Of a stretch of DNA of 64,000 bases, positions 6,643-64,000 are shown one piece after another. The translations under genes were made by a program, and so were the position numbers. The notes under the pieces were generated by a model. That model saw nothing but the letters and a program-made list of their open reading frames with translations. It had not been told where the DNA came from and did no database searches. Origin of the DNA: an uncultured Bdellovibrionales bacterium (GTDB taxonomy: Bacteria; Bdellovibrionota_C; UBA2361; SZUA-149; CAZDWZ01). The stretch is taken from positions 17,011-81,010 of the forward strand of contig CAZDWZ010000008.1 in assembly GCA_964509425.1 (NCBI GenBank), read 5' to 3'. How positions within the stretch are numbered: position 1 is the stretch's first letter; every line of letters begins with the position of its first letter.

Positions 6643-7809
6643 TTGGACATTCTGCCTACAACGCTTCTTATCGACTCTCGTGTGCGTGAGAGTATCGTCG
6701 CGAAGCGAATCCTTTCGCGGCTCCCGGCGAGTGTTCACGTGGAAGAACGGTCGATGCGCGGTGATCCGCTCCGGAGGGGAAGCGGTGAGGACGAGAGGCT
6801 GGACGACGGCGCGCACTCGCCGCTCTCGAACGCCGAGCGATTCTCTCTCGGAAAGAAAACTCTCTACCTCACCCGATACGACGGTGAGTGGTTGAAGGCT
6901 TGTCCGGGAACATCCGGGCATGTGTGTTGCAATTTGTGGATTGTGAATCCGGGCGAGGGCTGCCCGATGGACTGCACGTATTGTTATCTGCAGTCATACC
7001 TTATCCGAAATCCGACGCTGAAGATTTATACCAACACCGACGAAATGATCGCCGCCATCGGGGATGCCGCGGAAAAAGCGCCCGGACGTTTGTATCGAGT
7101 CGGAACCGGAGAGGTCATCGACAGTCTGGTCTGGGATGGTCTTACCGACCTCTCGCTCGACCTCGTTCCGTTCTTCGGAGAACGAGAGAATCTCATTCTC
7201 GAATTGAAGACGAAGTCGAACCGCGTCGAGAACTTACTAAAAATGCCCGAGTCCGTTCATCGTGGAAAAACCGTCGTCTCTTGGTCGGTGAATGCGCCAT
7301 CGGTGACCGCCAAGGACGAAGCTTTAACCGCGAGCTTGGACGAGAGAATTGCCGCAGCGGAAGCCGTCGTAAACGCGGGGTATCGGGTGGGCTTCCACTT
7401 TGATCCGCTGATTCATTTTGCCGGATGGGAAGACGAGTATAACGAAACCGTTTCCCGAATATTCTCGCGAATTCCCGCCGATCGGGTGGCGTGGGTGAGT
7501 CTTTCTTCCCTCCGATATCAGCCGGAAATGCGGGACGTCATGATTAGCCGTTTCCCTGAAAGCGGGATTCCCTACGGGGAACAATTCCTGGCGAATGATA
7601 AAAAGCTGAGATATTTGCAGCCGCTCCGGTTTCAGATGTTGAACTTTCTCCGCTCAGTGCTTAAAGCAAGGGGTCCCGAGCTTCCGGTGTATTTATGTAT
7701 GGAAAGTCCGGCTGCTTGGCGTAAGGTCACTGGCGGACTCCCGGCGGCCGGGGCGGAGCTCGGAGAAGTGTTTTCCCGAAGGGGCCTTCTGAATATACTG
7801 CCCGGCTGA
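6643..7809 (+). CDS. Radical-SAM DNA repair enzyme of the spore-photoproduct-lyase (SplB-like) family
   Basis: CPMDCTYCYLQ (CxxxCxxC cluster followed by YLQ). Size about 390 aa. Overall resemblance to SplB-like proteins from memory. Confidence 0.75.
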   Translation: MDILPTTLLIDSRVRESIVAKRILSRLPASVHVEERSMRGDPLRRGSGEDERLDDGAHSPLSNAERFSLGKKTLYLTRYDGEWLKACPGTSGHVCCNLWIVNPGEGCPMDCTYCYLQSYLIRNPTLKIYTNTDEMIAAIGDAAEKAPGRLYRVGTGEVIDSLVWDGLTDLSLDLVPFFGERENLILELKTKSNRVENLLKMPESVHRGKTVVSWSVNAPSVTAKDEALTASLDERIAAAEAVVNAGYRVGFHFDPLIHFAGWEDEYNETVSRIFSRIPADRVAWVSLSSLRYQPEMRDVMISRFPESGIPYGEQFLANDKKLRYLQPLRFQMLNFLRSVLKARGPELPVYLCMESPAAWRKVTGGLPAAGAELGEVFSRRGLLNILPG

Positions 7810-10911: not shown

Positions 10912-11283
10912 GTGGCCGTGCAGACGTACCCGGTGCAAGGCGATGATGCCGAGCGCCTGAACGCGATTTTCGCCGTTGCGAACTTACCGCGAGTCTCGGG
11001 GACCATTCACGAATTTCACGAGATCCTGCGGTGTCTCGGTGAACGCGATATCGAAGGGCTCTTGAAGGTCGCGGCGAAGATGACCGGAGCGCTCGACCAT
11101 CGTCCCGAGGTGGACCCGGAACCGCAAACGACGTTCGAGGTCGGCGACGTGCTTCAGTTTCGTCGCGCCTCTCAGCTCGTCAGATACGTGGGGCTGCGGT
11201 TTCGCGGCGGTGACGTGACGCTCACGATCGTGCCTGTGCGTCCCGACGCCACGGCGGTGGAGGTCGACGTTCAGACCGACTGA
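10912..11283 (+). CDS. Hypothetical protein
   Basis: 123-codon GTG-start ORF with coding-like G/C-ending codon bias. No motif recognised. A 10-bp stem hairpin (ggaagagagg...cctcttcc) follows. Confidence 0.5.
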   Translation: MAVQTYPVQGDDAERLNAIFAVANLPRVSGTIHEFHEILRCLGERDIEGLLKVAAKMTGALDHRPEVDPEPQTTFEVGDVLQFRRASQLVRYVGLRFRGGDVTLTIVPVRPDATAVEVDVQTD

Positions 11284-15245: not shown

Positions 15246-15272
15246 CGAAGAACATGGGGCAGAGCAGCATTA

Positions 15273-15516
15273 CTCTCAGTCTCAGTCTCAGTCTCTGTCT
15301 TGGTCTCTATTTCGATTCTCTGTCTCGGTCTTGATTTCTCAGTCTCTGCCTCTACCTCGGTGTTTTGTTGACGGAGACGGAGACGGAGCGGGGGAGATAG
15401 AGATGGAGGCAGAGAGCGAGTAAAGAGATTGAGACTGAGAGTTGAGATAGAGACCGAGACCAAGACTGAGACTGGGATGGAGCCTGAGACGGAGACTGAG
15501 AATTGAGACTGAGGCT
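15273..15516. repeat. Long imperfect inverted repeat (hairpin) built from degenerate hexamers, CTCAGT-type on the left arm and GAGACT-type on the right arm
   Basis: Complementary blocks keep register: 15277-15287 with 15464-15474, 15297-15310 with 15447-15466, and 15343-15352 (tctctgcctc) with 15406-15415 (gaggcagaga). The centre is near 15361-15372. Confidence 0.8.
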
Positions 15517-38060: not shown

Positions 38061-38156
38061 GGCTTCTCTGTCTCGAAAAAACGAACAATTCCTATAGCCG
38101 TGTGCAAGGGAATCTTCAAGGCGACGGGATTCCGGCTAATGCCTCAGTATGAAATT

Positions 38157-38389
38157 TCTCCGGTGCTCTGGTGCTCTGTGGTTCGTTATCAATAAAAAAA
38201 TGAACCACAGAGCACCAGAGCACTGGAGAAAAGGCGAAAAAGGTCCCAAATTCAAACTGAGACACCGGCACCCACTCGATGTCTGCTCTGTGCCTCTGCG
38301 CCTCTGTGGTTCGATAGGCACCGCAAACCAGGTCGCAGCGACGCGGAGATTCGCTATCCTATTGAACCACAGAGACACAGAGGCACGGA
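38157..38389. repeat. Four copies of a ~27-nt GAACCACAGAG-type REP-like element arranged as two inverted pairs
   Basis: Pair 1: 38157-38183 and 38201-38227 are reverse complements with 1 mismatch in 27 and a 17-nt A-rich loop. Pair 2: 38285-38311 and 38363-38389 have 4 mismatches (23/27) and a ~51-nt spacer. All four share GAACCACAGAGnnnCAGAGnCACnGAG. Confidence 0.85.
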
Positions 38390-38423
38390 GAAATAACTGG
38401 ATTTTGCCCGTTGGGCTCAAGGG

Positions 38424-40007
38424 CTACTCCGAGAGGAGTGTGAGTTGCTGGAGGCGAAGGTCTCTCAGAGTCAGGAAAACTCTATCGATGAGGTGAAAGT
38501 CGAGAGAGAGCGAATTTAGCTGATGCACGCATTTTGATTCGGCGAGCTGCGGCTCGTTTTTGATGCCGCCGTCGGGAGAGACGAGAATTGCCTTGAAGCA
38601 AGGGATATCGGCCAGAAGCTGTTCGAAATCTAAGGCAGAGAGCCTGCAGAATTTCTTCCAGGTGAGGAGCAGCAGTTTCCCTTCAGAGAGCGCCGCGCGG
38701 CACTGAGTCAGAGTCCTCAAGCGAAGAAAATCATCGGAGACCGTGTACTGCAAATAATCAGGGAGTGCAGTGTCTTCGTCGCGAAGCTCCGCACCGAGCA
38801 CTTCGGCGGTTACTTCAGGAAGATGACCGCTTAATGCGTCCTCTCCGAGGAGCACCACGCATGCCGGTCGGTTCAAACCGAAGATGAGGCGCATGAGAAG
38901 GCCGAAAAGCTCGGAAGCTGTTTCCATGGGATTGCTGCTGGAGAACAGTCCGCCGGATAGCAAACTCTGCAGCCGGGTGGCGCAAACCGCGACTTTGAAG
39001 AACTGGAAAACACGCGCCGAATAGGCTGCTGGATGGTTCGTGAAGTAACTGTCCTCGAACCGCTCCGAGAGCTCACGGCCGGAAAGCTCGAGCTCTACCG
39101 ATAAGCTCGCAATATCGTAGAGGCAGTCGTCCGTGCGTACTCCCAGGTGTTGCGCTTGCCGGCCCAGAACAACCGGAACGTGTTTTCGCTCCCAATTATC
39201 GCGGAGAAAATAGATGTTTCGGGCGATCACGTTTCGGTGGCAGTCGAGGATGAGTCCGCCCTCATTCCGTTTCCGGAATTCGTCGCCGCTGTCGCGAAAG
39301 GTGCCAGACAAGAAATCGAGCGCCTCTTCCATGCCCCTCGTATAAATTCGATCGAGGAGCGGACGCGAAAACGTGAGGAGTTTTCGAAGCGGATCGAGAT
39401 GACGCCGCTCAGTGAGGGTAAGAAACTGATCCGTTGCTGATGATTGACCTTCGCGGTTTTTCGAATTGGGTGTCCGATGGAACTGAGAGAGCACGGCAGC
39501 GACTTTTGGCAGCAAGCTGTTGGTGATGCTCTCGTTTTTCTCGACGAGAGAGTCGAGTCTTTCGTGACGATCGAGCTTGCGGAGAACCAATGCCACGTCA
39601 TGCGTGTTTCTCGGCATCCGCGCCAACTCTCCGCGAACGCTTCTCGCCCGGCTCTCCCAGACGAGGTCTCCGTCTTCTTCTTGAAGGCACCGGAGGCCCA
39701 GATACACCGGTTCGGCCAAAGGCAGGTTGTCCGCAAGCTCCTCGACCGAACGTCGCCAGCGTTCTTTGGCAGGCTCGCCGTTCCGGTCTCCGGATTTTAG
39801 GAATTTATAGGCGATCCCGTTTCCGATGATGATCCAGGCTCGATTGGTTTCGAGAATTTGGTCTTTTTTGAAGCCATCAGGGTAAAACCAGGAAAATTCC
39901 AACCAATCCGCCAGGCCAAGGTGGCCGGAACTAAGGCGGACCGAGCGGGATTCTGGAGCAGTCGACTGCGGCATCATAAAAATGTAGCGGAACGGGCCAC
40001 TTCGCAC
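38424..40007 (-). CDS. Phosphotransferase-fold (APH-like) protein with a degenerate C-terminal NTPase-like half
   Basis: ILETNRAWIIIGNGIAYKFLKS...EELADNLPLAEPVYLGL resembles the N-terminus of bifunctional aminoglycoside-phosphotransferase/ATP-binding proteins (from memory). The C-terminal VVLLGEDALSGHL sits where a P-loop would be but lacks GK(S/T). GTG start. Confidence 0.6.
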   Translation of the reverse strand: MRSGPFRYIFMMPQSTAPESRSVRLSSGHLGLADWLEFSWFYPDGFKKDQILETNRAWIIIGNGIAYKFLKSGDRNGEPAKERWRRSVEELADNLPLAEPVYLGLRCLQEEDGDLVWESRARSVRGELARMPRNTHDVALVLRKLDRHERLDSLVEKNESITNSLLPKVAAVLSQFHRTPNSKNREGQSSATDQFLTLTERRHLDPLRKLLTFSRPLLDRIYTRGMEEALDFLSGTFRDSGDEFRKRNEGGLILDCHRNVIARNIYFLRDNWERKHVPVVLGRQAQHLGVRTDDCLYDIASLSVELELSGRELSERFEDSYFTNHPAAYSARVFQFFKVAVCATRLQSLLSGGLFSSSNPMETASELFGLLMRLIFGLNRPACVVLLGEDALSGHLPEVTAEVLGAELRDEDTALPDYLQYTVSDDFLRLRTLTQCRAALSEGKLLLLTWKKFCRLSALDFEQLLADIPCFKAILVSPDGGIKNEPQLAESKCVHQLNSLSLDFHLIDRVFLTLRDLRLQQLTLLSE

Positions 40008-54682: not shown

Positions 54683-54912
54683 AGGGAGTAAAAATCAGTA
54701 ATCTCTAGAAGAATCAATAGTTAGCTCAGGGGGTTCGATTTTCAGGGCGTACGGTATTACACCGTTTTGGCTCGAGATTTAGGAGCATACTCTAGGCGGG
54801 CGATTGGGCCAAGAATCTCGGTGGGAGTATTATCGAGATTCGGCTTCGTCTAGGTCGAGAAATGCGGACAAACGATCCGTTCGAGCTCCAGCAGTCAATT
54901 CTAGGGTGCGGA

Positions 54913-55725
54913 TTACGGCATCGCGAAGAAACGAGAGCATTCATAATCATTCCAGGACTGTTTCTGCCGATCGACGAGCTTCTCATAGTGGTTTCTCAGC
55001 TTCGCCTTCGCCGTCCGCTTCTCCTCGAGAAGTTTCACCTCCCGCTCCTTTTTCTCGAACGCTGCTCGCTCGCATTTTCCAAGCCAGACTTTGACCTCGA
55101 TATCGAGGAGCTTGAAATATTCGTGGCGGTATATCTGATCTTCAACGTCATATTCTTCGCGGTATTTTTGCGCGGACTTTTGCGATTGAGTGAGATCTTT
55201 GACGAGCCTGGCACAGTAAGCCTTTGTCTCCGTGATTCCGACGAAGTGCTCGGCTGAGGCTCCGGCCATTTCAAATTCGGCATCCGCGGTGATCGGACTC
55301 GCAAACGTGACCATCACCAGCTCATACGTAAGGTTCAACAGTTCGCTGAGATCAAGCTCCGGCATCTCGCAGGCGCAGCAAATTGGCGGAGTGGGAGTTG
55401 CACTTGGGCTCGGAGAGGGTGTGGAAAACGGGAGCTCAACAAAGGCTGAGGGGATAAGACTTGGTGTCGGCGATGGCGCATGAGCGGACGCCACCGGCGT
55501 CGGAGTTTGCGTAGGATATGCGGGATACATCGGAGGAGCCTCGAAAGTTCCCGGAGAAGAGTAGGGTAAAGGTGTCGGGCTCGGCGCGGAGCTGAACGTC
55601 TCGATTGGCGATGGATACGGCGTCGCAAATTCAGGACCGGCCGCCGCGGGAGACGCTGAAAAAGCTGCAATAAAAAAGTAGAGCGCGGAGCCGCGTCGAT
55701 AAGAAAAGAGTCGAATAAAATTCAT
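54913..55725 (-). CDS. Secreted hypothetical protein with a Pro/Ser/Thr-rich N-terminal half and a Cys-containing helical C-terminal half
   Basis: Signal-like MNFIRLFSYRRGSALYFFIAAFSASPAAA, then PSPTP repeats, ICCAC, and a K/E-rich tail. Start placed at ATG 55725. Confidence 0.55.
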   Translation of the reverse strand: MNFIRLFSYRRGSALYFFIAAFSASPAAAGPEFATPYPSPIETFSSAPSPTPLPYSSPGTFEAPPMYPAYPTQTPTPVASAHAPSPTPSLIPSAFVELPFSTPSPSPSATPTPPICCACEMPELDLSELLNLTYELVMVTFASPITADAEFEMAGASAEHFVGITETKAYCARLVKDLTQSQKSAQKYREEYDVEDQIYRHEYFKLLDIEVKVWLGKCERAAFEKKEREVKLLEEKRTAKAKLRNHYEKLVDRQKQSWNDYECSRFFAMP

Positions 55726-55781
55726 AAAACCTAACGAAAAAAAATAAAAGGGCTTTAGGAGTCGTGCGCTAAATTCGCTCC

Positions 55782-56015
55782 TCAATTGCGCTGTCTGGTA
55801 ACCAGTTTGCTGAGGAGTGACGTTCTGTTCGAGAACCGATCGTTCTCCGGGTATGCTGAAGGCAAGGGTTCAGCCCAAGCGGCAGCCCAAGTCGTCTCGG
55901 CCGGGATTGACTGAGGCTCAATTTTGGATACGGCGTCTGGAGCCGGCCAAGCCAGGGCGCAGGTCACGACAGCGAGAAAAAAACAACTTGCGAGGGTGAA
56001 TCGTAGAGCTTCCAT
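55782..56015 (-). CDS. Small secreted hypothetical protein
   Basis: 77-codon ORF with a signal-like FTLASCFFLAVVTCALA. The stop overlaps the long form of the downstream ORF. Confidence 0.4.
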   Translation of the reverse strand: MEALRFTLASCFFLAVVTCALAWPAPDAVSKIEPQSIPAETTWAAAWAEPLPSAYPENDRFSNRTSLLSKLVTRQRN

Positions 56016-56259
56016 TCGCTAACTCCCTTTGAGGACGTGAAACGCGGCAAGACGCCATTAGAATGTTTCGGTCTTCGCTATTATGGGAGGGAAATCCAGG
56101 GGTTCCCGCGATGGCGGCGACAAACCTATGACAATGGAGTTTCAGCTTTGTAAGCGCGTGTTTTAGCTGATGGGGTTTGAGTTAAGCTTGCTCGCATTCC
56201 CGCACCAGCTTCAAAAAAGCTTACGGAAAGAAGAATTACACTCTCCTTGTGTGACAGGT

Positions 56260-56925
56260 TCAAGCGGCGTCGGCTCGAAAAAATGAGAGCATTTCGCCGG
56301 GCGTTTGAATGAGTGACATCGCGCCGGCATTTTTTAGTTCCTCTTCATCTCGAAATCCCCAGAGCGCGCCAACGGAGTGCATGGTCGCGCGGTTTGCGGT
56401 CTCGATATCGACATTGCTGTCGCCGAGAAAAGAAATCTGACGCGGGCCCATCCCGAGACGCTCGGCAATTTCGAGAGCCGCCACGGGAGACGGCTTGTGC
56501 GGTACTCCGAACCTCGCTCCGAGAACTGCTTTAAATTCTATTTCGGGAAAAAACTCTTTTACCATCTGCTTCGTGAAAGCGTCCGGCTTGTTCGAAAGGA
56601 CGGCGAATGGAATTTCCATTCCGCGGAGCGCATCCAGCATCTCCATGATCCCCGGATACGGCCGGGAATGATCGCGATAATGCGCTTCGTAGACGGGTTT
56701 AAATTTCTGAACGCAGGTGTTTAGCATCTGAGGGGAGAGCGCACGCGTCGGAAGACAGCGTTGAAAAAGCTTTTCGACGCCGTTTCCGACGAATTGCCGG
56801 TAGCGGTCCGTTTCAAATACCGGAAATCCCAGAGCTGCAAGTATCTCGTTTGCAGTAATTGCAATGTCTTCGAGCGTGTCGAGCAGCGTCCCGTCGAGGT
56901 CGAAGATGGCGGCGGCGGAGGTCAT
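56260..56925 (-). CDS. HAD-IA hydrolase, phosphoglycolate-phosphatase-like
   Basis: IFDLDGTLLDT (motif I), VLSNK (motif II) and FLGDSNVDIETANRA (motif III/IV). Confidence 0.85.
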   Translation of the reverse strand: MTSAAAIFDLDGTLLDTLEDIAITANEILAALGFPVFETDRYRQFVGNGVEKLFQRCLPTRALSPQMLNTCVQKFKPVYEAHYRDHSRPYPGIMEMLDALRGMEIPFAVLSNKPDAFTKQMVKEFFPEIEFKAVLGARFGVPHKPSPVAALEIAERLGMGPRQISFLGDSNVDIETANRATMHSVGALWGFRDEEELKNAGAMSLIQTPGEMLSFFRADAA

Positions 56926-56945
56926 GGTGAACGTTAAACAGGAGA

Positions 56946-57509
56946 TTAGAGGAAGTCGAGTGCCGCGAGGTGATCGCGAAACGCTTGACGATTGTGATCG
57001 CTTTCCTTCGGATAAGCTTTCAAAAGCGCTTGCTCTGCTTGCTTGAGTTTTTCTGAGGCTGATTGAATTCTGAGATCGTTTGCATATTGCTGAATCTGCA
57101 TCCGGTCGCCGCGGGCGATCGCCTTTAGGTAATTCACTTCGTCCATCATCGCATTCCCGATAAGCCGGGCGACTTCGGCGGACTCATCCGGAAGTTTGTA
57201 TTCCCGTATGCGATGAGCAAAGCGTTTCAGGTCAGTGATCTGTTTCTCGACTTTTCCCCGTGACATCCGGAGAATCTGCACGGCTTCGACTCGGCAGACG
57301 ATTGCGAGATCGATGATGTGAAAGAAATCTTCGAACACTTCGGAGGTCTCTTTCGGCAGCTTCGACTTCCCCTTTTCGTAGGTCGTCTGCTGCTGTGGAA
57401 TGGACTTGTAAGCTTCTTGAATGCTGATGGCAGAGGCAGCGCTTGGGTTACCTACGGCCGGGAGAATAACGAGAGCGGCGAACAAAACAGGCGACAGCAA
57501 GCGAAACAT
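56946..57509 (-). CDS. Secreted helical hypothetical protein
   Basis: Signal peptide MFRLLSPVLFAALVILPAVGNPSAASA from ATG 57509; the ORF opens at 57593. No family recognised. Confidence 0.55.
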   Translation of the reverse strand: MFRLLSPVLFAALVILPAVGNPSAASAISIQEAYKSIPQQQTTYEKGKSKLPKETSEVFEDFFHIIDLAIVCRVEAVQILRMSRGKVEKQITDLKRFAHRIREYKLPDESAEVARLIGNAMMDEVNYLKAIARGDRMQIQQYANDLRIQSASEKLKQAEQALLKAYPKESDHNRQAFRDHLAALDFL

Positions 57510-57792
57510 ATCGAGTTTTCCTCCAAACCTTTCCAGCCCGCGTGATCTCACGAGCCTCTGGGACCCGGTGTTATAAAACTGAAAGAAGTCCAAATTATAT
57601 TGAATAACCGGACTCGCGCGAAACCGGTAACCTCGTAGCTACGTTATTCCGACTTTGACGAATTAGCTGATGAAAGAAACGGAATGCCGGATTCTGCGTC
57701 CAAATGACACGAACAAGCTTTACTATTATCGGCGATGTGCCGACTATGGTTTTTATCGGCTTGTTCCGTGTTTCGGGTTTGATTGAGCACCT

Positions 57793-57984
57793 ATGTCGAA
57801 GAAAGAAAAACGAGGCCTCTATTTTCAAGGGCTTATGCTCCTGCTTGCGTTGGTTTGCCTGTGGCTGACCGACATCGCGGGCGTGCTCTCCGCTGACAAG
57901 GCCAGCGCCAATCCGACCCCCGGATATAAGTCCGATCCCTCAAACACGCTGGCCCCCAGAATATCCTTCCAAGCTCGGCAATAG
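57793..57984 (+). CDS. Possible small single-TM protein
   Basis: 63-codon ORF with a hydrophobic helix GLMLLLALVCLWLTDIAGVL. Isolated in a 700-nt intergenic region. Confidence 0.3.
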   Translation: MSKKEKRGLYFQGLMLLLALVCLWLTDIAGVLSADKASANPTPGYKSDPSNTLAPRISFQARQ

Positions 57985-58097
57985 GCCGGAATTCCGGCTC
58001 ATTTCGGAATCGCTTTCCCCCTGCGGCAACTCTGAACCTGGGGTGGGGATTTTCAGATTCTCTATGTGATTTCTAGAGTTCCCTTGCGGACCTGCCA

Positions 58098-58135
58098 TGG
58101 TATAGTGCTGCGGCCGGTTAACCGGCAGTTTTGAA
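58098..58135 (+). promoter_or_regulatory. Extended -10-like element (TGGTATAGT) immediately followed by a perfect 14-bp palindrome GCCGGTTAACCGGC and a T-run
   Basis: tggtatagt lies at 58098-58106. The palindrome lies at 58113-58126 and is followed by agtttt. It is about 160 nt upstream of the Ser/Thr kinase start. Confidence 0.3.
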
Positions 58136-58291
58136 TCGCGAATTCACCAGAACACTGCCCGGCGGAGCTGGCGTGTTCCTCAGCACAGCTGAGCCGGTAG
58201 AGTCGAGGTTCCGACGCTATAAAAACTGCGCCAAAAGCTCGGTATGAAAGGTCAAAATTACTCGGTCGGAACATAGGTCTCGGCAATCATT

Positions 58292-59971
58292 ATGGAACAT
58301 GATTCCAGCGAAGCAATAGACCCTCTCATCGGCCGGACTTTCGGTTCGAAGTATACCCTGGTGGAGAAACTCGGATCCGGGGGAATGGGAGGGGTATACA
58401 AGGCCGAGCAGGCCTTGATGAACCGCTTCGTCGCCATCAAGATTCTCCGCTCGACGTTTCACGGCGACGAGACCCAAATGCGGCGCTTCCAACAGGAAGC
58501 AAGAACACTCAGCCAGCTCTCACATCCCAACGCCGTCACCGTATTCGATTTCGGCGTCGAGGAAGGTTTTCCCTATTTGGTGATGGAATACATCGAGGGG
58601 AAGACGCTGAAGTCGATTGTCCGCGAGGAAAAGCGGCTTCCTCTTGATCGAATCAAAGGAATTCTCCGTCAGAGCTCTGCGGCACTCAGCGAGGCGCACC
58701 GTCTAGGGATCGTTCACCGCGATATCAAGCCGGACAATATCATGCTCCGGACCCACCATGACGGGAGCGATTGGGTGAAGGTTCTCGATTTCGGTGTCGC
58801 GAAATCCGTCATTGGGAATGATCCGAATCTCACGCAAGCCGGAGTATTGGTCGGCACCCCGCAGTATATGTCTCCCGAGCAGTGCCGGGGCAAGGAGCTT
58901 GATGCTCGGGCCGACATCTTCAGTCTCGGTGTCGTGCTCTACGAAATGTTGACTGGTGAAGTTCCGTTCCAAGCTCCGTCTGTTCTTGAGCTTCTGATGA
59001 AGGTCATGAACTCAGAAGCCGAGTCGATTCGGAAGTTCAAACCGATGCTGACCATTCCGCCGGCGATTGATGCGGTGGTTCTCCGGTCACTCGCGAAAGA
59101 TCCGGAAGAGCGCTACCAAACGATCGCGGATTTTTATTCTTCTTTTGAAAGCGCCCTTCCTCGGGTACCGGGGGGACAAGGCGGCGAACCAGCCGGTCCG
59201 CTTTCGAAGAAGGCAATTCTCATCATCCTTATTTCGGCGATTCTCGTTGCCGCGGTTCTCTATCCGGTAATGAACAAGCTCGCAGAGAGAAACCAGTCTG
59301 CACGTCAGGCCGCGGCGGAGAAGCGAGCGGTAGACGCCGCAAAGTTGGCGGAAGCGGAAAAGAAAAAGGCTGAAGAAGAAGCCGCGCGGTTTCGTGCCGA
59401 TGCTGCGATCAAAGATGCCCAAGCTTGGCAAGCCGAGCAGGAACGCCTCAAGTTCGAAGAAGAACAGAAAAAGGAACGAGAGCAATTAGAGGCTCTGCGT
59501 AAGGAAGAAAGCGAAAAAACCCTCGCCATGCAGAAGGAGCTTGAGGCCATCAAGCGCCGACAGGTCGAGATGGAGGCGAAGGTCAAGGAAGCAGAACAGC
59601 AGCAGCAACGTCAGGTCGCGGAGCGGCTCGAGCGAGAGCGACGAGAAGTCGAGCAAGAAGGAGCGAGGAAAACTCGCGAGCTCGAGCAAAAGGTCGACCA
59701 AGTAAGACAAGCCAAGGAAGAAGCCGAGCGCGCGGTTCAGAACCGGGCACGTGAAGCAGCTCGGGTAGAAGCTTCGCGTGAGGCCGCCCGGCGTGAAGAG
59801 GCTCGTCGCGAGGAGGCCCGTCGAGAACAAGCGAGACGCGAAGCGGAAGCGAAAGTTATCCCCGCGACTCCAGCTCCAACTCCTCCGAGGCAGATCGAGA
59901 AAGGCGGTGAAGACGAAGATGTCGTGAAGAAGAAGCCTCGGCGGAGATGCGGACCGACTTGGTGTGACTGA
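58292..59971 (+). CDS. Ser/Thr protein kinase with TM helix and a long charged coiled-coil tail
   Basis: GSGGMGGVYKA, AIK, HRDIKPDNIML, DFG, GTPQYMSPE. TM helix AILIILISAILVAAVLYPV. K/E/R/A-rich tail with EARREEARREEARREQARRE. Confidence 0.92.
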   Translation: MEHDSSEAIDPLIGRTFGSKYTLVEKLGSGGMGGVYKAEQALMNRFVAIKILRSTFHGDETQMRRFQQEARTLSQLSHPNAVTVFDFGVEEGFPYLVMEYIEGKTLKSIVREEKRLPLDRIKGILRQSSAALSEAHRLGIVHRDIKPDNIMLRTHHDGSDWVKVLDFGVAKSVIGNDPNLTQAGVLVGTPQYMSPEQCRGKELDARADIFSLGVVLYEMLTGEVPFQAPSVLELLMKVMNSEAESIRKFKPMLTIPPAIDAVVLRSLAKDPEERYQTIADFYSSFESALPRVPGGQGGEPAGPLSKKAILIILISAILVAAVLYPVMNKLAERNQSARQAAAEKRAVDAAKLAEAEKKKAEEEAARFRADAAIKDAQAWQAEQERLKFEEEQKKEREQLEALRKEESEKTLAMQKELEAIKRRQVEMEAKVKEAEQQQQRQVAERLERERREVEQEGARKTRELEQKVDQVRQAKEEAERAVQNRAREAARVEASREAARREEARREEARREQARREAEAKVIPATPAPTPPRQIEKGGEDEDVVKKKPRRRCGPTWCD

Positions 59972-59976
59972 TCGAT

Positions 59977-60579
59977 ATGGCTCTTGAAGCTTCGCAGCTA
60001 AACGCAAACCCCTTTTTGCAATTTCAAGAATGGCTCGACGCGGCAAAGGCCTCGTCCGGAATGAGCTATCCCAACGCCGTCTGTCTTTCGACCGTGACGC
60101 CCGACGGGGATCCCGATGGCCGGATTGTTCTCTTGAGAGGGCTGAGCGAAAACGGACTCGATTTTTATACGAACAGCGAATCCTCAAAGGGAGTTTCGTT
60201 GGAGGCCTCCCCCAGGGCCGCGATGACTTTCTACTGGGACAAGCTCCAGCGGCAAGTGCGAGTTCGCGGCAGCGTGACCAAAGTCACAACGGAAGAATCC
60301 GACGCCTATTTCGCGTCGCGGCCGAGAGAGTCGCAGATCGGTGCCTGGGCCTCGCAGCAAAGCCGACCGCTCGAAAATCGTGCAACTTTCGAAGGCAGGT
60401 TGAGGGATTATGAGCGGCAATTTGAGGGCGCTCAAATAGCTCGCCCCCCGCACTGGTTCGGATTTCGCCTCATTCCTCAAGCTTTTGAGTTCTGGCAGGA
60501 ACAGCCGTTTCGACTTCATGACCGCTTTCTCTACACGCGCCACGGGTCAGTTTGGGAGATCCAACGTCTCTACCCCTGA
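59977..60579 (+). CDS. pdxH: Pyridoxamine 5'-phosphate oxidase
   Basis: NPFLQFQEWL, RIVLLRG, FYTNSESSKG, SRPRESQIGAWASQQS, EFWQEQPFRLHDR...RLYP. Confidence 0.93.
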   Translation: MALEASQLNANPFLQFQEWLDAAKASSGMSYPNAVCLSTVTPDGDPDGRIVLLRGLSENGLDFYTNSESSKGVSLEASPRAAMTFYWDKLQRQVRVRGSVTKVTTEESDAYFASRPRESQIGAWASQQSRPLENRATFEGRLRDYERQFEGAQIARPPHWFGFRLIPQAFEFWQEQPFRLHDRFLYTRHGSVWEIQRLYP

Positions 60580-60850
60580 CTCCCATCCGTCGCCGCACGA
60601 AAAAGTAAACCCACGCTTGCTTCACGTACCAAGGAAGTATAAGGTATTTTTTTGCTCGATTGCTCTCTCAAACAAATCAATATCGTTGGTAGCAACTCGT
60701 CCACGCATCTTGCAGTTTCTCCATTAGCTGGTCCTTCTTGCCGTTAGCGGCGACTCAATAAACGAATCTTTCTCTTGTTTCTCTTTCGTTTTCGCTGCGG
60801 ATTAAGCTTTTTAGTAAACGCAAGATTCACGTCGGCCGGGTGTTCTCCTT

Positions 60851-60930
60851 ATCCATGGGTCTAGCAGGAAGGCTTGCCGTGCCGTCTTTTGCAGCGCCAT
60901 CTAGAGTTCTCTTTCTGGACCAATGGAACC
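60851..60930 (+). repeat. Hairpin module copy A (ATCCATGGGyCTA ... GGACCAATGGAACC)
   Basis: Shares a 13-nt 5' block and a 14-nt 3' block with copy B. The two blocks are imperfect reverse complements of each other (tccatgggtct / ggaccaatgga). Confidence 0.6.
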
Positions 60931-61387
60931 AAAGTCGTTTTGTTCATCGTTTGGAAGGGAGCACAGCTTCCGCGTGATTTAGTTCACCGGTCTCTCCCGT
61001 CCCCCCAGGAGATTTTTCTCAATACTTCCCTACGCTTTTACGCAATACATCTTCGCCTTCTCCAAACTTTTCTCGGCTTTGCCGATTTTAGTTTGGCCTT
61101 CGGGCCAAGTTGATGGCCTACGGGCTGCTCGCCGCCCTTGAGGCGGCCCCGGCATGCTTGTTTCTGAAACTTGTTGATTGCTGGATCTGTTCGCTCTTGC
61201 GTAACGGAACATGAGACTAACTCCTATTTGACTTCATCAAGATTATCTTCACCGATTTATTTAGATGAACACCTTTAGGAATTTTTTGGTTCCGGAGGTC
61301 CATGTATTTCCTCCTTTCATTTCTGCTGATCGCTTCCGCTGCCTTTCCTACTTTCCTGCACTCGTCTTTCTTACACTACCTCCTTCG

Positions 61388-61432
61388 CTGTGTAGTCACT
61401 CTGTGTAGTCACTCTGTGAAGTCACTCTGTGG
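61388..61432. repeat. 13-bp tandem repeat, 3.5 units (CTGTGTAGTCACT)
   Basis: 61388-61400 and 61401-61413 are identical. 61414-61426 has one change. A partial ctgtgg follows. The reverse complement contains CCACAGAG/CACAGAG cores like the 38.2-kb elements. Confidence 0.85.
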
Positions 61433-61978
61433 CCTCAATCGCTCTCGAAAGTATTTCAGTCGTCCGCTTCGCCGTGTCTGTTGCGTTCGGACCTTCCAAA
61501 TTCAGCTCTGTTCCAGCATTTCTAATACCGACCCATTCCAATTCTCGCTTTCAGCGCATCTGTGTTTCGTCCTGTGGCTTCTTTGCGACAATTTTTGTTT
61601 CCTCATTGCATTTTGCTTTCACACGTTTCACCTCGTTGTTCCCGGTTTCGCGGTGCGTTCGTTGCCCGCGTGTCGCGCGTAAGATTTCCTGCGGGAAAGC
61701 GGCGTGTCATTAAAAAAAATTTGGTATCCGCAACTACCAACCATCTCTAAGATTCTCTTTCCGTCACGCGCAAATTTTGGGACCTGACGTGAATTTTTTT
61801 TCATTCACGACTTGTCACAAAAATTTAACAGAGATAGGAAACTGCTTCGCACGTTGTTCTCTTCCGCCTCGCGGTCCTGAATTTTCGGCCTTTTTCTGCA
61901 GTTTCTCTGAGAAACACCTCAGAAATCATCGCTCAGAAATTTCGTCGCGTGGCTAAATCTTGAAACGGGTAAGACCAT

Positions 61979-62032
61979 ATCCATGGGCCTACAGGGGAGA
62001 GCTGCCTCTCCATCTTTAGGACCAATGGAACC
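61979..62032 (+). repeat. Hairpin module copy B
   Basis: atccatgggcctacaggggagagctgcctctccatctttaggaccaatggaacc. It contains an inner perfect ggagag-ctgc-ctctcc stem and the same terminal blocks as copy A. Confidence 0.6.
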
Positions 62033-62498
62033 GATTAGGTATTTTTATGGTTTTTTCGCCTCTCTGATTTCCTCCAACTTTTCAGCATTCAAATTTCAGT
62101 AAGTGAAACTCTCACTTTGAACTGACGCTTGTTTCACCGAATTATCGGTCGAAATTTCTTCTCCACGCTCGCGATCTGCGGATGTGCGGCTCACGATTGG
62201 ACGAACGTTTCCTCTTGGAAGCGTCGTGCACTCGTGCGCCTCACTTCCCCCTCACATCCGAACCTGGGGAAGTTCCCGAGAGGCGTACGAAAGATGTCCC
62301 AGTGGGCTCAAACCAAGGAGGACGCAGCGATGCGTATTCGAGCTCCCCCGGCTTAATCGCCGGGAGTGCGGTCGGCACCGGCGTTTTCGCCGGCCGCACT
62401 CTGTCTTCTGTCTGAGTCAACCCAACCGTTGGGGGGCTGGCCCGGTCGTTGCACCGGTCCGGCCCCCTGTCTCATCCGTTCACGGAGAAACTGCAGTC

Positions 62499-62654
62499 AT
62501 GCGCAACCTCGTCAACTTCAGCCCCGGCGTCGCCGGCGGCTGCTTCACGAAGGCGAACCTCGTCAACCACAACCCGGCGCACAACGACGGCGGCGGCGGG
62601 CACGCCGGCCACGGCCTCGGCCACGACCCGGGCCACATGACGGCCGGCGGCTGA
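62499..62654 (+). CDS. 52-aa His/Gly-rich micro-protein with 100% G/C-ending codons
   Basis: ATG 62499 with GGAGA 10 nt upstream, TGA 62652-62654. Product is MRNLVNFSPGVAGGCFTKANLVNHNPAHNDGGGGHAGHGLGHDPGHMTAGG. All 51 sense codons end in G or C (read one by one). No family recognised. Confidence 0.5.
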   Translation: MRNLVNFSPGVAGGCFTKANLVNHNPAHNDGGGGHAGHGLGHDPGHMTAGG

Positions 62655-63280
62655 TCAAGGGCGCGACCGAGCCGAGCGTACGCATGAGCTGACAAGCTCT
62701 GCTACTAACCCACCACCGGACGGCCTCATCACGGCATAGCTTGTACCGAGCTACACCTCGAGACCGTCTCGAAGTGTGCTCCTACAGCATATTGCCGGTT
62801 GGGCTAGCAGCGGTGCGTACGCAAGGCGGCGGGCCTGGGAATCTTTCGAAGTAAGCGACCGGCCGACGCGCAGCACCTTTGTGCGCGTCGGCATCGCCAG
62901 ACTTCGGTTCCTAGGTCCGTCACTTTTGTGGTGGCGTATTTTGCCGGATCTCTTCGTTGAAAGATTCCGCCTTCGCCAAGGCTTCGGCGGACAAGCTCCT
63001 TTTGCTGAAGCTACTTCGGGGAATTTCGCAGGAGTAAACTCCGCTCCTCGCCGCTCTTTCGCCTCGACCTCCGCCAAAATACCCCACCAACTTCGACTCT
63101 TATTTTCTATTTTCCAATCGCGAGAGCGATCTCGCCCTGGATGGTCTTGCCGCTGCCGCTGTCGCGGCTCTTTTCTTTTGATTTAAGCACGCCTCTCAGA
63201 AATTTTCGTATAACCCTCGACGTGGTCCTTGTTGGCCGCGATGGCGTTTATTTTTTCGATAGTTTTTGGAATGCGGTTTT

Positions 63281-63658
63281 ATGAAGCGGAAATTTCTCGT
63301 AGCGCTTTCTTTTTGCCTCACCTTTATCGGCTCCACGGCAATTTCTTCTCGTTCTGCGGTTGCAGACGATAGGCCCGCTTGCGTGCTTGAGGTGATCTAC
63401 GACGCGAACACTCCGCCCTGGCTGTTCTGGCTCTTTAAAGCGGGGACGACTCCTTGCGCGGGCGGTGTTTCGGCTTGTCTTACCAAGGAAGGAAACTCTC
63501 CTCCTGCCTCGCGTATTGAAGAGGGCGACATCTTCACGGGGGTTTGCTGGGATAAGCTCCCGAAGGGGAATGTTCAGGCTGTGAACTCGCGGATAATCGA
63601 CGAGTTCTTCATAAACGTCATCTTCCCGCTCCTCGGTGGGCCGACGTTTCTCCCATAA
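63281..63658 (+). CDS. Small secreted Cys-containing hypothetical protein
   Basis: Signal peptide MKRKFLVALSFCLTFIGSTAISSRSAVA from ATG 63281. Four Cys in the mature part. Confidence 0.55.
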   Translation: MKRKFLVALSFCLTFIGSTAISSRSAVADDRPACVLEVIYDANTPPWLFWLFKAGTTPCAGGVSACLTKEGNSPPASRIEEGDIFTGVCWDKLPKGNVQAVNSRIIDEFFINVIFPLLGGPTFLP

Positions 63659-63693
63659 AAAAAGCCCCGCAACTTCCGAAGAAGCTACGGGGC
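63656..63693 (-). terminator. Rho-independent terminator (read on the minus strand) shared by convergent genes
   Basis: gccccg (63664-63669) pairs with cggggc (63688-63693), with an inner cttc-cgaa-gaag stem. The A-run at 63656-63663 becomes the U-run on the minus strand. Confidence 0.6.
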
Positions 63694-63712
63694 CGGAGGG
63701 AGAGGGAGAATT

Positions 63713-64000
63713 TTAGATTCCGAAATCGTGTGCGAACTCAACACCGATTACAAACTTATCCCGAACCCGGTCGAACTCGCCTTTCGATTCGTCGGCATTA
63801 TCAACCGCGAAGATGTAGGTGAGGTTCGGTCGAACTTGGAAGATTCCGAGCTTCGCCGTTGTCGAGATACCGATGTTGATGTGTTCGAGACCGTTCCCGT
63901 TGTAGATCAACTTGTCGTCGTTTGCATTTGAGGCAAATCCGAAGAGCACGAACGGAGTCAGGTTGAAGTCCTCGCCGAGCGCCGGAGTTTCGAAACGATG
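63713..64000 (-). CDS. C-terminal part of a probable outer-membrane beta-barrel protein (partial, continues beyond the window)
   Basis: The reading frame is open to the window edge. The pattern alternates hydrophobic and polar residues (NLTYIFAVDN, FVIGVEFAHDFGI*). The terminator follows directly. Confidence 0.45.
   Translation of the reverse strand, partial: HRFETPALGEDFNLTPFVLFGFASNANDDKLIYNGNGLEHINIGISTTAKLGIFQVRPNLTYIFAVDNADESKGEFDRVRDKFVIGVEFAHDFGI

Follow-up and report, generated by a model that had tools for sequence, protein, structure and literature searches.

Structured bacterial transcripts that also encode a small protein are exemplified by the dual-function RNAs SgrS/SgrT, RNAIII/delta-haemolysin, SR1/SR1P (PMC8501984) and SR7/SR7P (PMC7834092), in which an ORF of 26–51 codons makes up a minor part of the transcript and no other gene is present. 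In Bacillus thuringiensis, cry3Aa is transcribed as a long primary RNA from which a stable mRNA is processed; a Shine-Dalgarno (SD)-like sequence further upstream, the STAB-SD at position -125, protects this mRNA (Agaisse & Lereclus 1996, summarised in PMC12970973). Here we analyse a locus in a 64-kb stretch of DNA from an uncultured Bdellovibrionales bacterium, hereafter called the window. The locus holds a small ORF with coding signatures in a predicted structured transcript that lacks other genes, as in the dual-function RNAs. It also has a short upstream ORF and stacked hairpins before the gene for a His-rich product, a layout shared with leader-peptide attenuators and NiCo (czcD) riboswitches.

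Results

A small ORF with saturated G/C third positions

The peptide encoded by the ORF (Table 1) has seven His residues overall, and its last 30 residues contain 10 Gly and 6 His. GC1/GC2/GC3 of the ORF are 0.71/0.51/1.00: all 51 third positions are G or C, 41 of them C. For host genes in the window, GC3 ranges from 0.52 to 0.76, and 51-codon windows average 0.61 with a standard deviation of 0.073. Given the peptide and the codon usage of the host, the probability that every third position is G or C is about 3e-12. The flanking noncoding sequence near the ORF reaches a GC content of only 0.62–0.65. The first-pass annotation had described this ORF and its uniformly G/C-ending sense codons from the letters alone; its 51-residue peptide was reproduced exactly, a comparison with host genes in the window gives a GC3 of 1.00 versus 0.61 ± 0.07, and the gene start that it quoted to illustrate A/T-ending codons is present at 11468.

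The length of the ORF by itself is unremarkable in a sequence of 72% GC; by our own calculation, a 52-codon open frame is expected about half the time at the ORF's base composition. The coding evidence lies in the periodicity and not in the open frame. The period-3 signal is bounded exactly by the ends of the ORF, from the ATG at 62499 to the TGA at 62654, and the ORF is also predicted by the gene caller in two other assemblies. On the opposite strand, a shadow ORF (62480–62695) shares the same third positions, but its GC1 is lower than its GC2, which is atypical for genes. Its length is not kept in the relative described below. The plus-strand ORF has the gene-like order of GC1 above GC2. On these sequence grounds, we conclude that the 51-codon sequence is a real small ORF of coding type and extreme composition.

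Three other interpretations of the frame were rejected: a longer ORF of 156 residues starting from GTG 62184, as periodicity is absent upstream of 62499; selenocysteine read-through of the TGA, as the GC3 signal ends there; and derivation of the AAC-rich ORF from a diversity-generating retroelement (DGR) or a variable repeat, as the window has neither a template repeat nor a reverse transcriptase.

Table 1. Positions of the island features in the window, with the evidence for each.
Feature	Position	Strand	Basis
Accessory island of ~3.1 kb, pdxH stop to terminator of the convergent gene	60580..63700	+	absent in L094/L095
Promoter-like box TTGCTT-N17-TAAGGT, 40 nt past the pdxH stop (putative)	60617..60645	+	alignment; conserved in L084, L092
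Domain 1, from motif D1 (60917-60930) to inverted copy I1 (61288-61301)	60917..61305	+	conserved in 5 lineages
Domain 1 conserved hairpins	61073-61085, 61093-61108, 61115-61126, 61131-61147	+	5 lineages
Domain 1 pairing of ACATGAGAC with GGTCCATGT	61209-61217 (ACATGAGAC)	+	
Tandem 13-nt repeats CTGTGTAGTCACT, 4 copies, after I1	61388..61439	+	sequence
Motif copy D2, GGACCAATGGAACC, 480 nt before the ATG	62019..62032	+	479 nt in relative
AAGGAGG box, 177 nt ahead of the ATG	62315..62321	+	sequence; also in relative
uORF MRIRAPPA, 8 codons, lineage-specific	62330..62356	+	sequence; no counterpart start in L081
GC-rich hairpin chain (62347-62364, 62365-62399, 62417-62430, 62432-62467)	62347..62467	+	MFE and centroid folds
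TCTGAG between hairpins	62411-62416	+	sequence
SD-like GGAGA in a weakly structured stretch; the ATG follows after 10-11 nt	62484..62488	+	sequence, folds
Small ORF, 51 codons + TGA, product MRNLVNFSPGVAGGCFTKANLVNHNPAHNDGGGGHAGHGLGHDPGHMTAGG	62499..62654	+	GC3, periodicity, gene caller, homologue P0003, counterpart P0125
Stop context TGATCAAGGGCG	62652..62663	+	TGATCAAG identical in relative
Long 3' hairpin, degenerate motif GGGCCTGGGAATC (62831-62843) paired with inverted copy GGTTCCTAGGTCC (62906-62918)	62831..62945	+	fold, regex
Terminator-like hairpin + T-run	62917-62945	+	terminator scan
130-residue ORF, small secreted-type, without a domain	63266-63658		

The GC3 extreme recurs in a diverged relative

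The locus is found in two independent SRA assemblies (SRR13608702, SRR9903539), identical over 8380 bp in one (L001) and 99.9% identical in the other (L002). The latter differs from the window by one SNP, T62475A, located in the leader. Both junctions are reproduced in these assemblies, which disposes of the assembly chimera considered in the first-pass annotation.

A more distant relative (L081/L091), with a pdxH 61% identical to that of the window, has a 42-codon ORF at the same place. Its GC3 is 0.98 (41/42), compared with 0.57 ± 0.08 and a maximum of 0.76 for its host. The distance from the conserved 14-nt motif D2 to the ATG is 480 nt in the window and 479 nt in the relative, and both carry AAGGAGG, the chain of hairpins, TCTGAG and, around the stop codon, TGATCAAG. 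The flanks of the module have a GC content of 0.50–0.65 in both lineages. That so high a GC3 recurs at this position in a long-diverged lineage indicates that the codon bias is not a trace of foreign origin; with architecture and spacing also kept, the foreign high-GC insertion raised in the first-pass annotation is not upheld. No match was found in plasmid, phage, IMG/VR and JGI metagenome collections with the island DNA, the peptide alignment or the back-translated FSPGVAGGC pattern.

We asked whether codon adaptation to the host could be the common factor. In the window lineage the CAI of the ORF is exceptional (0.90 versus 0.75), and every Leu and every Val is encoded by CTC and GTC, respectively, the codons that the host prefers. 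The CAI of the counterpart ORF is ordinary (0.78 versus 0.79). Adaptation to host codon frequencies is thus seen in the window lineage and is missing in the relative, and was rejected as the common factor.

An orphan peptide family

Three peptides make up the known set, and the ORF module is known in two versions at the DNA level. A HMMER search over 1.84 billion representatives returned a single true homologue of the window peptide (P0001), P0003 from another metagenome, where it is encoded on the 1105-bp contig ERZ22666135; the first 35 residues show 63% identity. Two further candidates, P0002 and P0004, were dismissed as low-complexity matches. The two peptides share M-NLVNFSPGVAGGC, H-DGGGG and a C-terminal MTAG, and are separated by an in-frame indel of 12 codons (36 nt). 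The 12-residue insert, missing from P0003, is the His/Gly tract HAGHGLGHDPGH, so this tract is not a family feature.

The positional counterpart in the relative (P0125) gives no BLASTP alignment with the window peptide and lacks the putative N-terminal leader NLVNFSPGVAGGC. A word-index search with the window peptide matched only itself, Pfam and NCBIfam contain no family for any of the three peptides, and no match to the peptide was found in the PDB. AlphaFold predicts no fold, with a pLDDT of 50. The peptide is rich in Gly, His and Asn and has no predicted helix, unlike the hydrophobic or transmembrane peptides of type I toxin-antitoxin systems.

A hairpin-rich leader and 3' flank

The leader elements reported in the first-pass annotation, namely the GGAGA before the ATG, the AAGGAGG box, the uORF and three hairpins, are all present, the second hairpin spanning 62365–62399. 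The hairpins appear in both MFE and centroid folds, with z-scores of -2.8 to -3.1. The leader of the relative has the same hairpin topology with different stem sequences (z = -3.6). There, a GAGG lies 8 nt ahead of the ATG and the AAGGAGG box at about -226; at the place equivalent to the uORF start, the box is followed by ATC and no ATG, GTG or TTG. SD sequences are absent from most host genes. The AAGGAGG 7-mer has 20 copies in the 64-kb window, and its conservation in two lineages could be due to chance.

No intrinsic terminator, defined as a stem followed by a U-run, was found at 62330–62499 by terminator scan; the second hairpin has no U-run, and CUGUCUUCUGUCUGAG comes after its stem. Long-range pairing of 60711–60722 and 61896–61913 with the ribosome-binding region (62479–62496) was also considered and rejected, as shuffled targets give energies in the same range and L081 lacks both sites.

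The window has no Rfam match at the gathering threshold, NiCo/czcD included, and lowering the threshold to E <= 10 over 60400–63400 gives only three chance matches to unrelated eukaryotic families. In the relatives the sole match is CC2171 at 21 bits, below its gathering threshold of 75. ARAGORN found neither tRNA nor tmRNA.

The ORF lies in an accessory island with an RNA-like upstream domain

The module is part of an island carried by at least five lineages and missing in one (L094/L095), in which only 87 nt separate pdxH from the homologue of window 63711–63986. Insertion of the island relative to L080 was considered on the basis of a weak 25-nt match and rejected, as the AAGGAGG box, hairpins and ORF were found at the end of L080/L081. 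Three further pdxH relatives (P0014, P0016, P0010) are not syntenic and lack the element. The neighbouring genes encode PdxH, a Ser/Thr kinase, a HAD hydrolase and AspRS. Downstream of the leader are only the 51-residue ORF and then a 130-residue ORF without any domain, with no metal transport or resistance gene; the earlier remark that no modifying enzyme, transporter or regulator is nearby agrees with the content of the island and its immediate neighbours.

No convincing long ORF was found between 60580 and 63265. The upstream part of the island is an array of hairpins that resembles a plus-strand RNA and is more strongly conserved than pdxH: the identity of Domain 1 to L092 is 77.5%, versus 67.9% for pdxH DNA. 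Its folding z-score is -4.0 in the window and -10.8 in L080. In Domain 1, 91.6% of cells are paired versus at most 54% with the partners slid, and across five lineages there are compensatory and G-U changes, including three pairs with double changes. The conserved hairpins of the island have UNCG-type loops. At the place of the CTGTGTAGTCACT array, other lineages carry different tandem repeats. No covariance-model match was found to the large ncRNAs of Rfam 15 (OLE, GOLLD, ROOL, HEARO, raiA and others).

Discussion

A proposed translated ORF on a protected transcript

Based on the sequence comparisons, we suggest, with a probability of roughly one half, that the ORF is a genuine, translated and fast-evolving small-protein gene, carried on the second domain of a structured plus-strand transcript, whose third positions would be under selection. 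The transcript, possibly processed, would be made from the ~3-kb accessory island downstream of pdxH. Very stable GC hairpins, with the AAGGAGG box ahead of them, may protect its 5' side, and the 90-nt hairpin together with the terminator-like element its 3' side; the last ~40 nt ahead of the ATG would be left open for ribosomes. The G/C third positions, mostly C, would be kept by synonymous-site selection for RNA stability or nuclease resistance, for fast decoding, or for both. We infer that the island is transcribed, that the ORF is translated and that the hairpins and the AAGGAGG box stabilise the RNA. The most likely product is either a small protein that is intrinsically disordered and made in abundance, or a peptide that is exported. 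Against this proposal, the flanking noncoding GC stays at 0.62–0.65, and pressure on RNA stability alone does not obviously explain a GC3 of 100%.

A further point against the reading is that the window peptide does not align with its positional counterpart by BLASTP; high expression usually goes with slow protein evolution. The small size of the family, the lack of a predicted fold, the ordinary CAI in the relative and the 20 copies of AAGGAGG in the window weigh on the same side.

A wider proposal, which we hold tentatively and at somewhat less than even odds, concerns the whole island. It may encode a large, so far undescribed plus-strand RNA whose several domains are marked by GGACCAAUGGAACC and its inverted copies, by conserved UNCG-type hairpins arranged in an array and by tandem repeats that differ between lineages. 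The second of these domains would have evolved into, or captured, a hairpin-armoured mini-mRNA with an orphan ORF kept by selection at ~100% GC3 in genomes of ~0.6. If true, large dual-function RNAs would gain a new class, from an uncultured clade that may be related to Oligoflexia or Bdellovibrionota.

Alternative explanations

The ORF could instead be untranslated: the segment would belong to a large structured non-coding RNA or to an element structured at the DNA level, and the periodicity would be a relic or by-product. We regard this as unlikely. The island as a whole does resemble structured RNA, a 52-codon open frame is expected about half the time at this composition, the window peptide has no fold or family, and the peptides cannot be aligned between lineages. 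However, third positions that are G or C in 51/51 and 41/42 codons, from ATG to stop only and in two lineages with flanks of 0.50–0.65, are very hard to obtain without a constraint linked to translation. The 36-nt indel between P0001 and P0003 preserves the frame while the N- and C-termini are conserved, both lineages have a purine-rich SD-like element 8–11 nt before the ATG, and the ribosome-binding site is free of structure. An exchangeable, foreign high-GC cassette, repeatedly replaced at a fixed site in the island, would explain why unrelated peptides occur inside the same scaffold. Its composition (noncoding ~0.65, GC3 ~1.0) is what high-GC genomes typically show; same-position peptides do not align, one lineage lacks the whole island, the relative's assemblies all break 9 nt past the stop codon, and direct and inverted motif copies surround the module. 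The near-identical distance from D2 to the ATG (480 versus 479 nt) and the common AAGGAGG, TCTGAG and TGATCAAG point to descent with divergence and not to independent insertions. With no recombinase or transposase gene in or beside the island, no match in the plasmid, phage, IMG/VR and JGI metagenome collections, no homologue from a high-GC organism among the 1.84 billion representatives, and Leu and Val codons (all CTC, all GTC) that the host itself prefers, we consider the cassette improbable.

An exported or modified precursor of the bacteriocin, RiPP or signal type, with NLVNFSPGVAGGC as N-terminal leader, a hypervariable C-terminal core and enzymes encoded elsewhere, seems very improbable to us. 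The RiPP precursor suggested in the first-pass annotation survives only in the weak sense that the N-terminus is conserved between P0001 and P0003 and the C-terminus is divergent; no precursor-family HMM matches, and no modifying enzyme, protease or exporter was found in the island or among its immediate neighbours. The orphan family diverges very quickly, and its Gly-rich, disordered product is encoded in an accessory island beside a small secreted-type 130-residue ORF, as might be expected of a precursor, but the C-terminal MTAG is conserved too, unlike a free core, and the counterpart P0125 has no putative leader. The same annotation saw in the leader an attenuator- or riboswitch-like layout and in the product a metal-binding peptide. 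The strong SD, the 8-codon uORF overlapping the first hairpin, the stacked hairpins that follow and the seven His residues suggested this control of a His/Gly micro-protein by a uORF attenuator or metal riboswitch; we now consider it highly improbable and the model largely refuted. The uORF is missing in the relative, no hairpin has a trailing U-run that would provide an intrinsic terminator between uORF and ORF, no Rfam family is matched at any threshold, P0003 lacks the His/Gly tract, and no metal transporter or regulator lies near the locus.

Implications

If the translated, selected ORF that we favour is correct, the synonymous sites of a small gene are at saturation (51/51 and 41/42) in genomes with a GC3 of ~0.6. 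The GC3 extreme would outlast the alignability of the peptide, which would make the locus a clean and testable example of selection that acts on properties of the mRNA (stability, structure, decoding) and not on the protein. It would also define a new family of large structured RNA with an embedded coding segment, confined to uncultured bacteria and more conserved than the adjoining housekeeping gene. An extreme-GC3 island in a mid-GC genome does not imply foreign DNA or a chimera.

Comparison with known systems

The locus departs from leader-peptide attenuators and NiCo (czcD) riboswitches in that neither the uORF nor the His tract is conserved, no U-run terminator is present, and an Rfam match and a downstream metal gene are both lacking. 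The STAB-SD of cry3Aa offers another likeness: a perfect SD-like sequence lies far upstream inside a long leader (-125 in cry3Aa, against -177 in the window and about -226 in the relative), the transcript may begin much further upstream, and the relative's box has no start codon attached. Unlike in cry3Aa, the window box precedes an ATG, that of the uORF, and the bacterium does not belong to the Firmicutes; two lineages could also share a 7-mer by chance.

Known dual-function RNAs are 0.2–0.5 kb long, whereas the locus described here spans ~2.3 kb with two motif-bounded domains. To our knowledge, no dual-function RNA has an ORF with saturated G/C third positions. With OLE, GOLLD, ROOL, HEARO and raiA, the island shares its length, intergenic position, restriction to a clade, strong folding, UNCG-type hairpins and better conservation than the neighbouring gene. 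It differs from these RNAs in matching none of their covariance models, in its motifs (GGACCAATGGAACC and inverted copies), and in carrying a coding-type ORF.

Codon composition of the small ORF

The first-pass annotation of 62280-62700 matches the sequence, including the peptide and the observation that every sense codon of the small ORF ends in G or C (51/51, of which 41 are C). By codon position, its GC is 0.71 (first), 0.51 (second) and 1.00 (third). Overall GC of the window is 54%; GC3 ranges from 0.52 to 0.76 in its convincing genes and averages 0.61 (sd 0.073) over 51-codon windows. Conditional on the peptide and host codon usage, the probability that all third positions are G or C is 3e-12. 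The highest GC3 among ordinary ORFs, 0.76, is that of a 123-aa ORF at 10912-11283 (+), which matches PF02371, the transposase domain of the IS110 family, below threshold and may be a transposase remnant.

In a frame-resolved profile, the period-3 signal begins at the ATG, ends at the TGA and is absent from the flanks. An antisense ORF (62480-62695) has its third positions in common with the small ORF; it would have GC1 < GC2, the opposite of real genes, and its length is not kept in the relative described below. In the window lineage, the small ORF uses the most frequent host codon for almost every amino acid (Leu all CTC, Val all GTC), and its CAI of 0.90, compared with 0.75 ± 0.03 for host genes, is in the top 0.05% among 51-codon windows.

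Gene calls for the exact peptide exist on two Logan contigs, each from a separate run. The SRR13608702 contig (8380 bp) is 100% identical to window 54683-63062, and the SRR9903539 contig (987 bp) matches 62008-62994 except for T62475A. Both junctions of the GC-rich segment are thus reproducible, which rules out an assembly artefact or chimera, an option raised in the first-pass annotation.

Homologues of the peptide

Pfam, NCBIfam and PDB contain no match for the window peptide, and AlphaFold predicts no secondary structure (pLDDT 50). A word-index search returned only the peptide itself, and scans of JGI metagenomes and IMG/VR for relatives returned nothing. Using HMMER against 1.84 billion representatives, we found one convincing homologue, P0003 (40 aa, ENA ERZ22666135, MLNLVNFSPGVAGGCAIVKVTLIGLPAMHDDGGGGMTAGC), on a 1105-bp contig with no second called gene. 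The two peptides are 63% identical over residues 1-35 and both end in MTAG. The window peptide has 12 additional residues inserted in frame, HAGHGLGHDPGH; these make up the entire His/Gly tract. The tract is therefore not a family feature, and metal binding, proposed initially from this tract, is not supported as a family property. A secreted or modified peptide, in line with the accompanying suggestion of a RiPP-type precursor, is conceivable yet lacks any supporting gene context.

A positional counterpart in a relative

The best match to pdxH among GTDB representatives is 54% identical. Metagenome assemblies contain relatives at 56-94% identity; among those with names, 'Deltaproteobacteria' and 'Oligoflexia' MAGs come closest (56-57%). 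In one relative (contigs L080-L083; pdxH 61%), AspRS-HAD-kinase-pdxH synteny is kept and 1.6-2 kb without genes follows pdxH. There, at the end of L081 and on Logan contig L091, which may stem from one sample and so may not be independent, lies a 42-codon ORF, MLYHDTHAPNGACCKNTTANSDIHSGPNSAVINRQRRFPMLD. Its codons end in G or C at 41 of 42 positions (GC3 0.98, GC1 0.52, GC2 0.48); GC3 of the relative's host genes is 0.57 ± 0.08, with a maximum of 0.76. The distance from the 14-nt motif GGACCAATGGAACC to the ATG is 479 nt in the relative and 480 nt in the window, and that from the AAGGAGG box about 226 nt and 177 nt, respectively. The relative's leader is a chain of stable GC hairpins (z = -3.6) whose stem sequences differ from those of the window, with a TCTGAG element between hairpins in both lineages. 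A purine-rich GAGG lies 8 nt 5' of the relative's ATG, the stop context TGATCAAG is identical, and in both lineages GC climbs from about 0.50 between motif and box to 0.64-0.65 in the leader. BLASTP gave no alignment between the two products; by eye, only P-x-x-A-(x)-C ... A-N ... H is common to both, collinearly. All assemblies of the relative's lineage stop inside the small ORF or 9 nt past it (L080 and L082 ends; L081 7702-7711; L091 1135-1144; …TGATCAAGCGTG), a common break point for which a repeat, heterogeneity between strains or a variable segment immediately 3' of the ORF may be responsible.

The CAI of the relative's ORF is ordinary (0.78 versus 0.79 for its host), because this host often prefers A/T-ending codons. 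The property common to both lineages is therefore G or C, especially C, at third positions; adaptation to host codon frequencies is ruled out as a common property. As the non-coding flanks have a GC of about 0.65, a general pressure towards GC is not by itself enough to produce 100% G/C at wobble sites. The most economical inference is a constraint specific to the ORF, for example on decoding or on avoiding AU-rich nuclease sites in the ribosome-covered part.

The accessory island and its structured domain

In another related lineage, L094/L095 (pdxH 57%; 48% GC), a gap of only 87 nt with a terminator (L094 1377-1462) separates the pdxH stop from the convergent gene, which is 74.6% identical to window 63711-63986 over 276 nt. 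By this comparison window 60580-63700, including the 130-aa ORF, is a nearly gene-free accessory island of about 3.1 kb, either gained by insertion at this site in the clade or lost by deletion in L094/L095. The 130-aa ORF belongs to no Pfam or NCBIfam family.

Features of the island (window coordinates unless a relative's contig is named)
Feature	Coordinates	Strand	Remarks
Domain 1	60580-61450; L080 6943-7810; L092 672-1600; L093 1384-2271; L096 661-1460		upstream hairpin part
Promoter-like TTGCTT-N17-TAAGGT	60617-60645	+	just 3' of pdxH; conserved in L084 and L092
Domain 1 motif GGACCAATGGAACC	60917-60930	+	preceded by CCATGG, then hairpin
Four short hairpins	61073-61147	+	UUCG/UNCG-type loops; conserved in domain 1
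Inverted motif copy	61288-61301		adjoins ACATGAGAC/GGTCCATGT pairing
Tandem repeats	61388-61439; L080 ~7765-7805; L096 ~1440-1490; L092 ~1690-1730		13-15 nt, 2-4 copies
Motif copy	62019-62032	+	just 5' of small-ORF module
AAGGAGG box	62315-62321	+	from sequence
8-codon uORF	62330-62356	+	from sequence; lineage-specific
Small ORF	62499 (ATG) to 62654 (TGA)	+	product MRNLVNFSPGVAGGCFTKANLVNHNPAHNDGGGGHAGHGLGHDPGHMTAGG
Inverted motif copy	62906-62918		pairs with degenerate copy 62831-62843, forming 90-nt hairpin
Terminator-like hairpin and T-run	62917-62945	+	after 90-nt hairpin
130-aa ORF	63266-63658	+	right end of island; signal-peptide-like N-terminus (MKRKFLVALSFCLTFIGSTAISSRSAVA), several Cys
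Strong bidirectional terminator	63663-63694		at end of 130-aa ORF

Five lineages have a recognisable domain 1 (the window, L080, L092, L093 and L096), with the inverted motif 350-600 nt past the direct copy. The tandem repeats that follow occupy the same position with a different repeat sequence in each lineage, and look like iterons or repeated binding sites for a protein. Domain 1 is better conserved than pdxH DNA: in the comparison of the window with L092, its non-coding stretch is 77.5% identical (271 nt), and pdxH DNA 67.9% (530 nt). In the four hairpins of the five sequences, 91.6% of cells are paired, compared with at most 54% when partners are slid. Compensatory double changes occur at three pairs; several G-C pairs have become G-U, and a closing G-U pair is maintained. 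The observed covariation score was reached by only 12 of 500 shuffles. Covariation lends the hairpins modest support, and the G-U pairs speak for a plus-strand RNA. On folding, domain 1 has a z score of -4.0 in the window and -10.8 in L080; window 61975-62950 scores -7.2. No Rfam family matches domain 1, which looks like an undescribed structured RNA.

The motif has no further copies elsewhere in the 64-kb window. Two other repeats were observed. At 15270-15510, an intergenic (CTCAGT/CTCTGT)n tract followed by (GAGAC/GGAGA)n forms a 57-nt imperfect inverted repeat with 94-nt separation. The inverted repeat at 38155-38231, 33 nt long and near-perfect (94% complementarity, spacer of 11 nt), has GGTGCTCT repeats inside it; a related direct copy at 38363-38393 is situated upstream of gene 38424-40007 on the minus strand.

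Alternative readings of the locus

The AAGGAGG box, uORF and three leader hairpins noted in the first-pass annotation are all present; the attenuator- or riboswitch-like reading drawn from them is not supported. The leader is more stable than shuffles (z = -2.8 to -3.1) and its hairpins recur in the centroid structure. No U-run follows any hairpin of the window leader, the RBS region is its least structured part, and in the relative AAGGAGG is followed by ATC, with no canonical start codon, so the uORF is not conserved. Rfam 15 gave no match in the whole window at gathering thresholds and only noise at E <= 10 in 60400-63400, metal riboswitches being absent; no tRNA or tmRNA was found. An attenuator or metal-responsive leader is the least probable reading. 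The minus strand of the leader folds about equally well, so strand cannot be assigned from folding alone. It is unlikely, though less so than the other alternatives, that the small-ORF segment is an untranslated part of a structured RNA; the period-3 signal confined to the ORF speaks against this reading, and the folding of its surroundings for it.

A recent foreign insertion, one of the options raised earlier, is ruled out by equal spacing and shared anchors in two lineages with no more than 61% identity between their pdxH proteins. Had the insertion been old, amelioration would be expected unless selection maintains the composition. That the small-ORF module is an exchangeable high-GC cassette seems improbable; island DNA matched nothing in the plasmid and phage collections searched.

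A possible mechanism and known systems

The locus contains a coding-type ORF with G/C-saturated third positions, conserved in place and architecture, within a non-coding island that is itself structured and conserved. This is a solid and unusual observation on a thin base: the module in two DNA copies, the peptide in three versions and domain 1 in five lineages. We give a probability of about 0.5 to a real small gene that is translated from a stabilised, structured transcript. A plus-strand transcript, perhaps from ~60650 to ~62945, or alternatively a processed derivative with its 5' end near the AAGGAGG box, would serve as a mini-mRNA for the small ORF. It would be shielded from nucleases by the chain of hairpins on its 5' side and by the long 3' hairpin, and the open RBS and uniform C-ending codons would permit efficient translation of a small disordered, very fast-evolving protein.

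SD-type motifs (GGAG/GAGG/AGGA at -20 to -4) precede only 14 of 45 long ORFs in the window, and the kinase, pdxH, HAD and AspRS genes lack one (starts checked include 58292, 59977, 56925 and 54682). The host seems to rely little on SD-led initiation, so the perfect AAGGAGG of the leader stands out. In cry3Aa, processing of a long primary transcript yields a stable mRNA that is protected by a STAB-SD box (PMC12970973). The AAGGAGG here may be comparable, as an SD-like box likewise far 5' of the start; it is conserved in two lineages and occurs 20 times in the 64-kb window. In its workings the locus would be closest to the dual-function RNAs SgrS/SgrT, RNAIII/hld, SR1/SR1P and SR7/SR7P (PMC8501984, PMC7834092) and to hairpin- or STAB-SD-stabilised mRNAs. 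It belongs to none of the Rfam, Pfam and NCBIfam families tested. Unlike these known RNAs, it extends over about 2.3 kb of non-coding DNA divided into two motif-bounded domains, carries a GC3-saturated ORF and is restricted to an uncultured clade.
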